DNA from: a virus
Lineage: Duplodnaviria; Heunggongvirae; Uroviricota; Caudoviricetes
Reading direction: 5' to 3' (one strand)
DNA: 20,091 bases
IMG/VR virus record: IMGVR_UViG_2693429524_000017
Coordinates: 1-20,091 of that record
Part shown: one piece after another, positions 2,286 to 18,172 of the stretch
How the letters are laid out: every line of letters begins with the position of its first letter
How positions within the stretch are numbered: position 1 is the stretch's first letter
Notes under the pieces: generated by a model
Seen by the model: only the letters and a program-made list of their open reading frames with translations
Told to the model about the DNA's origin: nothing
Databases searched by the model: none
Program-made: the position numbers and the translations under genes

Positions 2286-4486
2286 TGGCTGATGATAGAA
2301 AGATGACTGACTGGCATCGCAAGGTGCTGTGCAACTTTGATAATGCCTGGTCAGCAACGCAGGATATGCGTGAGCAGATTATTGAGGCTCAACGTTTCGT
2401 CCGGGTATCCGGCGCACAGTGGGAAGGCAGCACAAACGCTGGTTACTCATTTGATGAAGGAAGGTTTGAGCATTACCCGCGCTTTGAGCTGAATAAGATT
2501 GCCCGTGAATGTGATCGCATCATTGGCGAGTATCGACAGAATCGCATCAGCGTTAAATTCAGGCCGAAGGACGATAAGGCATCGGAAGCGTTAGCCGAAA
2601 AGATGAACGGCAAATTCCGCGCTGACTATCAGGAAACATCCGGTGGCGAAGCGTGTGATAACGCATTTGATGATGCTGTAACGGGCGGATTCGGTTGTTT
2701 CCGCATGTGTGCCGATTACGAAGATGAAATGGATCCGAGTAACGAGCAGCGCCGTATAAGCCTTCTTCCTGTTTACGACCCAGCGACATGCGTCTTCTTC
2801 GATCAGGACAGCAAGCAATATGACCGCTCTGATGCTATGTGGGCTATGGAAATGTTCTCCATGACGCCTAAAGCGTTCGAGGCTGAATACCCTGACTCCA
2901 TCGCGGCAAGTCTTTCTCGTGATGACACTGGTACTCAGTATGACTGGTCAACGCCTGATGCCATCTATGTTGGACGCTACTACGAAGTTCGCATAGAGAA
3001 GGTGAAGCTCACGGCGTGGCGCAATCCTGTCAGCGGAGAAACGGCAATCTATGATGAAGAGCAAATCAAAGATATTGTCGACGAGCTGACCGATGGTGCA
3101 TTCGAACTGATTGGCGAGCGAACGGTGAAGAAGCGCCGCGTTTATTGCGGTCTTCTGTCTGGCGCTGAATGGCTGGAAGAACCGAAGCGTATTCCGGGCG
3201 AACATATTCCTCTCATCCCGGTATATGGGCGTCGCTCATTTGTTGATAATCAGGAGCGAATAGAAGGCCACGCAGCAAAAGCGATGGATGCACAGCGTCT
3301 TGAGAACCTGATGGTTTCCATGATTGCAGATAACGCTACTCAGGCTGGCGGTGATGGCATTCCTGTAGTTGATGTTGACATGATTCCTGGTCCTCTCGCC
3401 AATCATTGGGCGGAGCGCAACAAAAAGCGCCCGGCGTTCCTGCCGATGGTAAGTCTGAAAAACAAAAACGGAGATATTACTGCGCAGGCTCAGGTCAGCA
3501 GTTATACACCTCCGACACAAATGCCTCCTGCTCTTGCCGGGTTATTGCAGTACACCGGAACGGCTATTCAGCAAATTACCGGGGCTTCGCAGCTTGAGAA
3601 CATGCCGAGCAACGTCGCCACCGATACCGTTGATAGCATCTTTAACCGGATGGACACGCAGTCCTATATCTACATGGACAACATGGCTAAATCCATGCGT
3701 CGCGCTGGCGTTGTGTGGCTTTCTATGGCGCGTGAGGTCTATGGCAGTGATACGCCGATGCGTATCGTGAATGAGGACGACAGCGATGACGTGGCGCTGA
3801 TGACTGGTGAAGTGGTTGACCGTCAGACAGGGCAGGTTATCGCGCTTAACGACCTTTCGCAGGGTAACTATGAAGTGACTGTCGATGTCGGTCAGTCGTT
3901 CGCTACTCGCCGTGATGCAACGGTTAAGTCGTTACTTTCCATGCTGGCACTTATCCCACCAGGAACGCCGAAGCACGACCTTGTATCGTCGATGATTCTC
4001 GACAATATGGACGGCGAAGGGATGGACGACCTGAAAGAATACAACCGCAATCAGTTGCTTCTGTCTGGCGTTATCAAGCCGAGAACGCCTGAAGAACAGC
4101 AAATGGTTGAGCAGGCGAAACAACAACAGGCCAGTCAGCCAGATCCGGCTATGGTTGCTGCGCAAGGTCAGCTTCTTGCTGGCCAGGCTGAATTGCAGAA
4201 AGCGCAGAACGAACAGGCAGCCATTCAGGTTAAAGCATTCCAGGCACAGACTGATGCTCAGGTTGCAGCGGCAAATGTTGTGAAAATACTCGCATCTGCC
4301 GATAGTCAGCAGAAATCTGATATCCGCGAGGCTCTGAAACTGCTCGGACAGTTCCAGCAACAGCAAGGAGATAATGCCCGTGCTGATGCAGAGCTTGTCC
4401 TGAAAAGTCAGGCACAGGGCCATGCGCAGCGCATGGACATCAGCAGCATCCTGCAAAAATCAACTCAGCAACAACCACAGCAGTAA
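2285..4486 (+). CDS. Portal protein (P22 gp1-like), about 733 aa
   Basis: Tandem ATGs at 2282 and 2285 overlap the terL stop; the track ORF begins at a TTG at 2270. Length and position fit a portal, with a Q/A-rich helical C-terminus like the P22 portal barrel. Shared motifs include KKRRVY, GEHIPLIPVYG and RMDISSILQ, but the sequence is clearly divergent from P22 gp1 as I recall it. Confidence 0.85.
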   Translation: MADDRKMTDWHRKVLCNFDNAWSATQDMREQIIEAQRFVRVSGAQWEGSTNAGYSFDEGRFEHYPRFELNKIARECDRIIGEYRQNRISVKFRPKDDKASEALAEKMNGKFRADYQETSGGEACDNAFDDAVTGGFGCFRMCADYEDEMDPSNEQRRISLLPVYDPATCVFFDQDSKQYDRSDAMWAMEMFSMTPKAFEAEYPDSIAASLSRDDTGTQYDWSTPDAIYVGRYYEVRIEKVKLTAWRNPVSGETAIYDEEQIKDIVDELTDGAFELIGERTVKKRRVYCGLLSGAEWLEEPKRIPGEHIPLIPVYGRRSFVDNQERIEGHAAKAMDAQRLENLMVSMIADNATQAGGDGIPVVDVDMIPGPLANHWAERNKKRPAFLPMVSLKNKNGDITAQAQVSSYTPPTQMPPALAGLLQYTGTAIQQITGASQLENMPSNVATDTVDSIFNRMDTQSYIYMDNMAKSMRRAGVVWLSMAREVYGSDTPMRIVNEDDSDDVALMTGEVVDRQTGQVIALNDLSQGNYEVTVDVGQSFATRRDATVKSLLSMLALIPPGTPKHDLVSSMILDNMDGEGMDDLKEYNRNQLLLSGVIKPRTPEEQQMVEQAKQQQASQPDPAMVAAQGQLLAGQAELQKAQNEQAAIQVKAFQAQTDAQVAAANVVKILASADSQQKSDIREALKLLGQFQQQQGDNARADAELVLKSQAQGHAQRMDISSILQKSTQQQPQQ

Positions 4487-16364: not shown

Positions 16365-16548
16365 GGTGGGATGCTAGGTCTCTATCGTTAAAATCAAGGC
16401 TGCTAATCATTTCATTGTAAATGGCGTTTTTATCTTCCATTGGCAGTCTTGAGTAAACCAGGCACAGAGCATATTTCAGGGAGTTTAGCTCCTTCTCTAG
16501 CTCTTCCTTGCTTGACGTTGTTGACTTAATAAACTGTTTTTTGTTCAT
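16339..16548 (-). CDS. Small hypothetical protein co-transcribed downstream of mnt, 69 aa
   Basis: ATG overlaps the mnt stop (ATGA on the minus strand), so probably translationally coupled to mnt. No family recognised. Confidence 0.5.
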   Translation of the reverse strand: MNKKQFIKSTTSSKEELEKELNSLKYALCLVYSRLPMEDKNAIYNEMISSLDFNDRDLASHLNSFRVPE

Positions 16549-16796
16549 TTTTCATCCTTACCATACATGGTCTTTAGCGCCTCAACATCGTGTTCAAGAT
16601 CTATCAATCGTGATGCTATAGTTGCAAGGTCTAGTGCTTGAATGTGTTTATTTTTTTCGGTCCACGCTTCAAGTGCCGCGACCATCTCAGCATTTAATGA
16701 ACGAGAATTAGCCTCAGCCAGTTCAATAAGACGTTCCTTTATCTCTACAGGAAGCCTCAGATTCACTTGAGGGTTTTTGTACTTACGATCAGACAT
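16545..16796 (-). CDS. mnt: Mnt-like ribbon-helix-helix repressor, 83 aa
   Basis: N-terminal RHH motif NLRLPVEIKERLIELAEANSRSLNAEMVAAL aligns with my recollection of P22 Mnt; same length; transcribed divergently from arc/ant as in P22 immI. Confidence 0.8.
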   Translation of the reverse strand: MSDRKYKNPQVNLRLPVEIKERLIELAEANSRSLNAEMVAALEAWTEKNKHIQALDLATIASRLIDLEHDVEALKTMYGKDEK

Positions 16797-16824
16797 CGGC
16801 GCATCCTGAATAATTTTTTACCAC

Positions 16825-16853
16825 AGGATATGTAGGTATCTATTGACTATCAA
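16825..16853 (-). promoter_or_regulatory. Pmnt-like promoter (minus strand: -35 TTGATA, 17-bp spacer, -10 TATCCT)
   Basis: The -35 is the reverse complement of 16848-16853 and the -10 of 16825-16830. An AGGA Shine-Dalgarno lies 7 nt before the mnt ATG. Overlaps Pant back-to-back. Confidence 0.5.
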
Positions 16854-16871
16854 TGCGTACCTAAATACTAT
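16843..16871 (+). promoter_or_regulatory. Pant-like promoter (-35 TTGACT, 17-bp spacer, -10 TACTAT) driving arc, ORF67 and ant
   Basis: TTGACT at 16843-16848 and TACTAT at 16866-16871; GGAGGA RBS at 16893-16898 before the arc ATG. Confidence 0.6.
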
Positions 16872-16889
16872 GTATGCGTACCACATACA
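16871..16889. promoter_or_regulatory. Operator-like palindrome TGTATG-N7-CATACA over the Pant -10/start region (candidate Mnt- or Arc-type operator)
   Basis: Inverted 6-bp arms at 16871-16876 and 16884-16889. In P22 the Mnt operator overlaps the Pant start point. Which repressor binds here is not determined. Confidence 0.4.
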
Positions 16890-16901
16890 ACGGAGGATGC
16901 A

Positions 16902-17042
16902 ATGAAGGTAAAAACACTGCGTATGCCAGAGAAGCTAGAAAAAATTCTTGAAGAAAAAGCAAAGGAAGAGTGTCGCTCATTCAGCGCAGAAGTAATTAAA
17001 CGGGTGATGGACAGCCTGAAGAGAGAGGGGATAACTGTATGA
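16902..17042 (+). CDS. arc: Arc-like ribbon-helix-helix repressor, 46 aa (absent from the ORF track because it is under 60 aa)
   Basis: ATG at 16902 with GGAGGA upstream. Translation MKVKTLRMPEKLEKILEEKAKEECRSFSAEVIKRVMDSLKREGITV aligns with P22 Arc as I recall it, notably RSFSAEVIKRVMDSLKREG against RSVNSEIYQRVMESFKKEG. Confidence 0.8.
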   Translation: MKVKTLRMPEKLEKILEEKAKEECRSFSAEVIKRVMDSLKREGITV

Positions 17043-17242
17043 GTAAAGAATGTTGTTTCTGCGGCATTAGCGAATCAGACGCTGATCAAACATACATTTA
17101 CTCTAAAGAAACAGGTCGGATGCTGTGTAGTGACTGCGTGTTGGACATCATAAGATACAAGCATCTTGGATGTTCTGCCAGCATTAGCAATATAGGTGAA
17201 GTATATGAAGGGAAAGATATAACTGATAGAGCAGAAAGTTGA
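17039..17242 (+). CDS. Small Cys-rich (zinc-ribbon-like) hypothetical protein, 67 aa, translationally coupled to arc
   Basis: ATG overlaps the arc TGA (ATGA). Cys cluster CCFCG...CSDC...C. Sits between arc and ant, where I recall P22 having only an intercistronic region. Confidence 0.55.
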   Translation: MSKECCFCGISESDADQTYIYSKETGRMLCSDCVLDIIRYKHLGCSASISNIGEVYEGKDITDRAES

Positions 17243-17340
17243 AGCCCCAACTGCTGGAACAGTCAGGGCTTCGGTATCGTAAAACCACACATAGGAATTA
17301 ACGACATGAAAAGTATAGCAACAGCAGTATCTACTATCAA
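17236..17340 (-). ncRNA. sar: Candidate sar-like antisense RNA locus: minus-strand promoter inside the ant 5' end, transcript running antisense across the ant RBS to a hairpin at 17241-17272
   Basis: Minus-strand -35 TTGATA (reverse complement of 17335-17340), 17-bp spacer, -10 TATACT (reverse complement of 17312-17317), placing the start near the ant ATG. An extended hairpin GAAGCCC..ACTG-CTGGAA-CAGT..GGGCTTC lies at 17241-17272. The predicted length of about 65-70 nt is similar to the P22 sar RNA as I recall it. The span includes the promoter. Confidence 0.45.
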
Positions 17341-18172
17341 TGTACCATTCCACGGCGCAGAGCTTTATGTTGTCAATCACAACGGCGAACCGTATACCCC
17401 AATGAAACCTATCGTTGAAGGCATGGGTATGGATTGGGCTTCACAGTTTACGAAAATGAAGCAGCGGTTTAAAACCTCCATTGTGAAAATCACAATGCAG
17501 CTTCCTGGTGATGAACAACGCCGTGAGATTATTTGTTTGGCACTTCGCAAACTTGCAGGTTGGCTGCAAACCATTAGCCCTAACAAAGTCCGCCCTGAAA
17601 TCCGCGACAAGGTAATCCAGTATCAGGAAGAGTGTGACGATGTGCTCTACGAATACTGGACTAAAGGTCATGTAGTTAACCCACGCAAAGCTAAAAAGGC
17701 GTTGCCGGGTAAAATTACCACTGAACAGCAGGAAGCCATTAAACAACTCGTCATGAGTCGCGGTCAGTCTCTGCCAAAAGAAAAACAGGCGAAGGCGATG
17801 ATCACCATGTGGTCGTCACTGAAATCTCATTTTGGGTGTTCATACAAAGAAATCAGCGATGAGCAGTTTACCGAAGCTCTGTCACTTGCAGCTCGTATTC
17901 CACTTGAAGGCGAGTTCATTGGCAAGTCGAAACATAATGAGATGAGTTGTTTTGATTGGAGGATGAATGTTCATAACCTGAACTCGGCGTGCATTCATCT
18001 TGATGCCATGTACAGAATATGGAGAGACGAAATGGAACCCGCTTTGCGATTGCTTGGCTCTCCGGTTGCGACCAGATTTTGCGGAAGAATTGCAGATTGC
18101 TATTCCGTAACTGCAAGCGTTAAGAAAAGTCTGGAGAATGCCGCAGGGCTGAAAGGCTTACAACCATTTTAA
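17306..18172 (+). CDS. ant: Antirepressor Ant (P22 Ant-like), 288 aa
   Basis: N-terminal segment YTPMKPIVEGMGMDWASQFTKMKQRF...ICLALRKLAGWL...YQEECDDVLYEYWTKG is typical of phage antirepressor N-domains; located after arc as in P22 immI. Confidence 0.8.
   Translation: MKSIATAVSTINVPFHGAELYVVNHNGEPYTPMKPIVEGMGMDWASQFTKMKQRFKTSIVKITMQLPGDEQRREIICLALRKLAGWLQTISPNKVRPEIRDKVIQYQEECDDVLYEYWTKGHVVNPRKAKKALPGKITTEQQEAIKQLVMSRGQSLPKEKQAKAMITMWSSLKSHFGCSYKEISDEQFTEALSLAARIPLEGEFIGKSKHNEMSCFDWRMNVHNLNSACIHLDAMYRIWRDEMEPALRLLGSPVATRFCGRIADCYSVTASVKKSLENAAGLKGLQPF

Follow-up and report, generated by a model that had tools for sequence, protein, structure and literature searches.

We identify the 65-bp stretch at positions 16,825 to 16,889 as the control region, with promoters and operators, of an immI (antirepressor) module of the CUS-3 type from a P22-like (Lederbergvirus) prophage of Escherichia coli. 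The window, by which we mean the whole analyzed stretch of 20,091 nucleotides from the IMG/VR record IMGVR_UViG_2693429524_000017, is the late region of such a phage or prophage, with about 95% identity to JEP4, EC.P3, E212, and CUS-3. The probable architecture of this control region is that of three phased 11-bp units laid over two back-to-back promoters and bound by the Mnt-like repressor. The module is the immI of P22 at the level of its genes, but it departs from P22 in promoter geometry and operator sequences, and it forms a distinct class. It represents a common version of a textbook phage switch rather than a new kind of system.

The control region is located between a divergent mnt-like gene on the minus strand and an operon composed of the arc-like gene, a 67-aa ORF, sar, and ant (Table 1). 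According to the open reading frames and the annotation of close relatives, mnt and arc-ant diverge from each other within the late region, and ant is followed by a tailspike gene with a P22-type head-binding end. P22 has its module at this same place, with DNA-transfer genes on one side and the tailspike gene on the other, and likewise has the divergent arrangement with two Arc-family ribbon-helix-helix repressors. The Mnt-like protein matches the Pfam family Arc (PF03869, E=3e-10), is 42% identical to the N-domain of P22 Mnt, and has 1mnt as its top match among the solved structures (PDB). In a low-confidence single-sequence AlphaFold model (pLDDT 69.6) it forms helices at residues 17-48 and 55-77, the second of which may correspond to the C-terminal oligomerization helix of Mnt. 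The Arc-like protein matches the same family (E=3e-9) with 38% identity to P22 Arc, and RefSeq E. coli genomes label the product as an "Arc family DNA-binding protein". The predicted ORF of 67 amino acids between arc and sar/ant, for which no Pfam match was found, overlaps the arc stop codon and is not present in P22. The sar RNA is full-length and lies opposite the ribosome-binding site of ant. As in P22, Ant carries the P22_AR_N domain, and the Psar-like promoter is placed inside the first ant codons, starting 6 nt into the gene, at an offset equal to that of the P22 Psar (BK000583). The gene set is thus a complete immI module.

Table 1. Promoter elements, repeats, and genes of the module, numbered from the first letter of the window.
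Feature	Position	Strand	Remarks
mnt-like gene	16545..16796	minus	83 aa; ribbon-helix-helix N-domain and (modeled) C-terminal helix
Pmnt -10, TATCCT	16825..16830	minus	17-nt spacer after TTGATA; sequence and consensus scan
Unit L, TAGGTATCTAT	16833..16843	plus	In Pmnt spacer; core GTAT 16836-16839
Pant -35, TTGACT	16843..16848	plus	Read in sequence and consensus scan
Pmnt -35, TTGATA	16848..16853	minus	Sequence and consensus scan
Unit M, ATGCGTACCTA on plus, TAGGTACGCAT on minus	16853..16863	minus	In Pant spacer; core GTAC 16857-16860
Pant -10, TACTAT	16866..16871	plus	17-nt spacer after TTGACT; sequence and consensus scan
19-bp dyad, TGTATG-N7-CATACA	16871..16889		TGTATG 16871-16876, CATACA 16884-16889; encloses unit R
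Unit R, ATGCGTACCAC on plus	16874..16884	minus	At inferred Pant start; core GTAC 16878-16881
arc-like gene	16902..17042	plus	46 aa; ribbon-helix-helix; first in ant operon
67-aa Cys-rich ORF (CCFCG...CSDC)	17039..17242	plus	phrog_7150, E=3e-50
sar antisense RNA	17237..17304	minus	Rfam RF00262, 80.9 bits (gathering score 43), E=9e-17
ant (antirepressor)	17306..18172	plus	Pfam P22_AR_N (PF10547), E=5e-45; phrog_524 anti-repressor Ant
Psar-like promoter, TTGATA-17-TATACT	17312..17340	minus	preceded by TG; 10/12 matches

The two promoters, TTGACT-17-TACTAT for Pant and TTGATA-17-TATCCT for Pmnt, had been proposed in the initial annotation to share their -35 regions, and this placement proved exact, with a one-base overlap of the two -35 hexamers at T16848 and with hexamers conserved in 22 relatives. 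Each promoter matches the consensus at 9 of 12 positions. Such promoter-like matches are not enriched in the surroundings (three in 1.2 kb, against 2.4 +/- 1.6 expected), and the case for the promoters is therefore built on context and comparison. The relatives comprise 80 IMG/VR loci and 18 genome loci, all encoding Mnt-like homologs; 89 loci anchored on the -35 motif gave 22 non-redundant control regions. In all 22 the Pmnt -35 reads TTGnnn (TTGATA in 18 of them) and the Pant -35 reads TTGAC[TA], while TACTAT or TAATAT occupies the Pant -10 in 17. At the Pmnt -10 position ten different hexamers occur, each of which conforms to TAnnnT (22/22). Fixed key positions around a free middle are characteristic of a functional -10. 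The conservation supports both predicted promoters, whose sigma-70 hexamers and 17-bp spacers are kept across the relatives. Judging from the hexamer spacing, Pant transcription would start at about 16878-16880, and the positions of the Pmnt hexamers would put its start at about 16817-16818.

The arrangement of the promoters differs from that of P22 (X01916, BK000583). There, the Pant hexamers occupy 302-307 and 325-330 and the Pmnt hexamers 335-330 and 312-307, which is the same 34 bp; each -35 abuts the -10 of the other promoter, and the inferred starts are about 37 bp apart, compared to about 60 bp for the back-to-back promoters of the window. The P22 geometry is thus absent from the window when the annotation and sequence of P22 are compared with the hexamers of the window and how these are conserved. 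In a MAFFT alignment the -10 and -35 of the window Pmnt correspond position for position to those of P22 Pmnt, and Pant is displaced rightward by about 41 bp relative to P22. This displacement equals two 21-bp units and fits the tandem 21-nt repeat described below. The operators differ as well: P22 has one 21-bp dyad and one 17-bp dyad, with Oarc between the hexamers and Omnt at the Pant start, and the window has three phased 11-bp units in their place. Neither Oarc (ATGATAGAAGCACTCTACTAT) nor Omnt (AGGTCCACGGTGGACCT) of P22 has a match anywhere in the window at up to three mismatches, in line with the earlier proposal that the operator sequences are not those of P22. The resemblance to the P22 immI switch, which was part of the same proposal, therefore stands for the gene content (two PF03869 proteins, P22_AR_N, and sar) but not for the promoter geometry, since the P22 promoters overlap fully.

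The repeats on which the initial annotation was based are all present. TAGGTA (16833-16838) and TACCTA (16858-16863) form arms centered on 16848, within the -35 regions; the 9-mer ATGCGTACC occurs at 16853-16861 and, 21 bp further, at 16874-16882; and TGTATG-N7-CATACA lies at the Pant start. A repeat finder additionally returned inverted arms at 16829-16846 and 16850-16867 with 78% complementarity and a tandem 21-nt direct repeat at 16836-16856 and 16857-16877 with 71% identity. To estimate the contribution of chance, the 105-bp intergenic region was shuffled 5000 times with its dinucleotide counts preserved. Of the shuffles, 2.5% contain an exact direct repeat of at least 9 nt, and 1.6% a palindrome with 11 of 15 pairs. 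Perfect 6-bp arms with a loop of up to 9 nt occur in as many as 28%, which makes the arms alone non-significant; the three features occur jointly in 0.06%.

These repeats are best read as three 11-bp units, ATGCGTACCTA / TAGGTAYnYAT, placed exactly 21 bp apart and termed L, M, and R. The core of unit R is 21 bp from that of unit M and 42 bp from that of unit L, and since 21 bp corresponds to two helical turns, the three units would be exposed on one face of the DNA. The RTAY core at 16836, 16857, and 16878 is kept in 18 of 18 enterobacterial representatives. An example of this pattern is the Photorhabdus-type locus L082, in which three copies (GGTACGCA / GGTACGTA / GGTACGCA) are spaced by 21 + 21 bp; in L087, GGTACGCAT recurs at 42 bp. 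In the window, unit L is a weaker copy (GTAGGTATCTA), oriented opposite to M and R, and it is exchanged for a direct-orientation copy in four loci (GCGTACCTA in L082, L087, and L099; ACATACCTA in L085). Such flips weaken the reading of the region as one large palindrome. Of the nine symmetric pairs in the TGTATG/CATACA dyad, most lineages retain seven, but L061, L063, L075, L085, L087, and L102 retain only 2-5. In Photorhabdus-type loci (L082) an extra copy of CATACAAA is located 10 bp downstream of the dyad, which hints that the dyad arms are a separate recognition element. The symmetric operators assumed initially thus describe repeats that exist, but the description is incomplete, as the conserved elements are the three phased units, of which L flips, and the dyad decays.

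The core of the region, 16832-16889, has 79-98% identity in lineages in which the mnt coding sequence has 56-77%, the mnt leader 34-68%, and the arc 5′ end 50-64%. The core is better conserved than the mnt coding sequence, which points to a stronger constraint on it than on the genes. The region is rich in GTA/TAC, and several alternative dyads can be drawn in it. The degenerate motif RCRTACC occurs six times in the window, with 5.5 copies expected, and the control-region pair of GCGTACC represents the only copies of this motif in the window. The direct repeat TACCACA (16819, 16879) was also considered; it is not conserved in the relatives and is therefore probably due to chance. Decayed loci were encountered as well. 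In L008 and L033 the control region gives way to other sequence immediately beyond the mnt leader, L095 ends directly past the GTA of unit M, and in L072 the arc gene is truncated (MKVKTLRMPEWLM*) and the right half is rearranged.

The units are predicted, with moderate confidence, to be bound by the Mnt-like protein. Its DNA-reading strand, YK[NH]PQVNLRLP, shows no variation among homologs with 48-99% identity, and an invariant strand is what invariant units would call for. Units and strand also occur together in orphan mnt-like genes, which have neither arc nor ant (L090-L093, from Moellerella and Providencia). These genes encode the same strand and carry TAGGTAT / GCGTACC / TAGGTAT upstream at a spacing of 10-11 bp, and the 14-mer TATCAATGCGTACC at unit M is found upstream of three of them (L090, L092, and L093, that is, Moellerella and two Providencia loci). 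The retention of the units upstream of genes that lack arc and ant is the second reason for the assignment to Mnt. The third is provided by P22. The strand of the window protein, PQVNLRLP, contains the Gln-Asn-Arg triad of P22 Arc (PQFNLRWP), whereas P22 Mnt (PHFNFRMP) has His-Asn-Arg, and P22 Arc applies the same Gln-Asn-Arg strand to TAGA boxes. The Emek Mnt (PQFNVRMP), which adjoins a TAGTAC-G-GTACTA dyad, was also counted in favor of the pairing of Mnt-like strand and units. Knight and Sauer are said to have reported in 1989 that the N-terminal residues set the specificity of Arc and Mnt. Ribbon-helix-helix dimers normally cooperate at distances of 7-11 bp, and the 21-bp spacing of the units is unusual in this respect. 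In Arc binding, 4-bp inverted boxes take part (PMC2724298). The orphan mnt-like genes (e.g., L091 1040-1200) also adjoin LexA boxes (CTGT-N8-ACAG), and L091 has a divergent umuD-like gene.

The sites of the Arc-like protein are harder to place. Its strand in the window, VKTLRMP (Val-Thr-Arg), differs from the PQFNLRWP of P22 Arc, and depending on the lineage it reads VKT[LIV]RMP, SSVRFP, or VSVRMP, with Ser/Thr and Arg kept throughout. No DNA difference specific to a strand type was seen among the relatives, and because all variants keep Ser/Thr and Arg, covariation cannot separate the Arc sites from the Mnt sites. The units could therefore belong to the Arc-like protein or to both repressors. 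Our best guess for the Arc-like site is the pair of dyad arms around unit R, and the alternative would be the mirrored elements of L and M. Arc-like homologs paired with another class of Mnt (EC.P3, 611R6) were examined and set aside as uninformative, as their strands and repeats are unrelated. A distant Mnt-like gene with the strand DPQFKLRLP was noticed in an Armatimonadia MAG (L103). Upstream of position 1201 of this locus there are two good copies of GGACCACGGTGGTYC, which share the 9-mer core CCACGGTGG with P22 Omnt, and a third, related copy (GGTGGACCACCGTGG).

In the proposed mechanism, Pmnt would drive the Mnt-like repressor gene leftward, and Pant would drive the arc-like gene, orf67, and ant rightward. 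The Mnt-like ribbon-helix-helix protein would bind units L, M, and R, probably oligomerizing through its C-terminal helix. Occupation of R and M would shut Pant in the lysogen, so that no antirepressor is made, and occupation of L would allow the Mnt-like protein to limit its own synthesis. After infection Pant would fire, and the Arc-like protein would then shut it by binding close by, with the TGTATG/CATACA arms on either side of unit R as the most plausible site. Blocking of ant translation by the sar RNA would constitute the third layer of control. A working analogy for this behavior, taken from general knowledge, is the OR region of phage lambda, in which three operators of one repressor lie between the divergent PR and PRM. 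Multiple sites over back-to-back promoters would in the same way permit repression of the lytic side together with self-limitation of the repressor. The window differs from lambda OR in that its repressors are of the ribbon-helix-helix and not the helix-turn-helix type, its units are 21 bp apart, and its -35 hexamers overlap. A more elaborate version, which we put forward tentatively and regard as rather unlikely in its entirety, is that a Mnt-like oligomer acting on three units two turns apart forms a graded switch resembling lambda OR, in which R and M would keep Pant tightly repressed and the weaker L would let the repressor limit itself. Such a switch would have developed out of the arrangement in P22 through 21-bp duplications and the acquisition of the Gln-Asn-Arg strand, so that specificity would have been exchanged between the paralogous repressors.

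A different assignment of the same repeats, implicit in the initial annotation, follows from the positions of the P22 operators. The TAGGTA...TACCTA palindrome (16833-16863) would then be the operator at which a single complex of the Arc-like protein silences both promoters, as P22 Oarc lies between the hexamers of both, and TGTATG-N7-CATACA would be the operator of the Mnt-like protein, as P22 Omnt lies at the Pant start. We consider this unlikely, though it has more in its favor than analogy: the rarity of the 11/15 palindrome among the shuffles, its persistence at 8-13/15 in the enterobacterial relatives, and the identity of the Pant and Pmnt spacers, each read in its own orientation, at 13 of 17 positions. 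The symmetry of the palindrome, however, is partly imposed, because the TTGA motifs of the two -35 hexamers, which face each other, by themselves dictate five of its pairs, and the TAGGTA arms, being 25 bp apart from center to center, would be on different faces of the helix. The left arm is moreover the element that is exchanged for a direct-orientation copy in four loci, and the TAGGTA/TACCTA units occur upstream of the orphan mnt-like genes, where there is no arc to use them. Against the dyad as the Mnt-like operator stands its decay in six lineages in which the Mnt strand is unchanged.

The repeats may also have no operator role and may be what is left of the duplication of a 21-bp tandem and a promoter, conserved only as promoter DNA. 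The tandem 21-nt repeat and the shift of Pant by about two units next to an aligned Pmnt are as this account would have them, but we hold it to be very improbable. Spacers and the first transcribed bases, which are normally free to vary, are here the best-conserved DNA of the module, with an identity exceeding that of mnt; by contrast, variation is free at the three central positions of the Pmnt -10; and the orphan mnt-like genes are preceded by the units in another arrangement. Improbable in the extreme, in our estimation, are a P22-like full overlap with Pant starting from TTTACC (16817-16822) or a function of TGTATG/CATACA as an RNA hairpin or terminator. The alignment does set TTTACC beneath the TTGACA of P22, yet TTTACC is not conserved in the relatives and no usable -10 follows it. 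The terminator scan likewise flags 16889..16871 on the minus strand, but the RNA fold of the dyad is no better than that of shuffled sequences (z = -0.05), the T-run is poor (TAGTATTTAG), and the inferred Pant start would fall within the hairpin.

Among phages, CUS-3 (CP000711) with its "ant moron" is the closest, with 97% identity over window positions 16581-17400. In the library searched, the only literature found on the CUS-3-type immI control region or its motif is the 2008 comparison of epsilon34, according to which CUS-3 apparently lacks arc (PMC2629481). In the CUS-3 record (L001), the stretch containing arc, 2735-3216, is labeled only "bsq2; boundary sequence", and arc is not annotated. 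In the same stretch, the Arc-like ORF is intact at 46 aa and has 93.5% identity to its counterpart in the window, and the 67-aa ORF is present too, which corrects the published impression of CUS-3-type modules without arc. CUS-3 also differs from the window in having a second mnt, of the P22 type and promoterless, immediately downstream of its own (L001 2187-2458). The P22 leader in CUS-3 (gccatcactccaagttagt) is cut off immediately ahead of the site that the Pant -35 occupies in P22, and this suggests that a recombination joint lies at the promoter. A further sign of exchange is found at the end of the window mnt. The C-terminal residues LKTMYGKDEK of the Mnt-like protein and the corresponding DNA (window 16545-16583) are 97% common to the EC.P3 (L106) and PhiR12 phages, whose Mnt is otherwise unrelated, and this points to mosaic recombination inside mnt.

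SEN22 has 81.5% identity over 334 aligned bases and a nearly identical control core, and it does not have the 67-aa ORF. The Emek/N7 type and the EC.P3/611R6 type have the same module, each class with strands and repeats of its own. The Emek Mnt resembles that of the window in the Gln-Asn-Arg strand and in the GTAC-containing dyad, and a 73-aa ORF takes the place of the 67-aa ORF, but Emek keeps the fully overlapping promoter geometry of P22. In EC.P3 and 611R6, whose strands TTVRIP and ILVRMP are unrelated to those of the window, the Pmnt -35 TTGATA and the Pant -35 TTGACT appear by eye to be about 25 bp apart and are read as separated back-to-back promoters; no Pmnt -10 was found in these two when the sequence was read by eye. 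The layouts of P22 and Emek, of the window, and of EC.P3 and 611R6 together indicate that promoter geometry appears to vary among the immI classes.

The module is widespread. With the 501-bp segment from mnt to arc as the query, DNA that is at least partly similar is present in 563 of 5426 complete E. coli genomes, and in 111 of those 563 at least 80% of the query is present. Relatives of the module are also found in prophages of Salmonella, Yersinia, Xenorhabdus, Photorhabdus, and Arsenophonus. Arc and Mnt of P22 are classic models of DNA recognition by a beta-sheet and of control by overlapping promoters. In the CUS-3-type module the genes are kept and the promoter geometry and operator grammar are rewired, which makes it a natural experiment on new immunity specificities in a two-repressor switch. 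For annotators, the regulatory sites and small genes of the module are now located. A last observation concerns the borders of the control region, where a perfect 7-bp inverted repeat, GCATCCT / AGGATGC, occupies 16801-16807 and 16894-16900. AGGATGC is the ribosome-binding motif of both the mnt-like and the arc-like gene, and the two copies are placed in mirror image around the control region.
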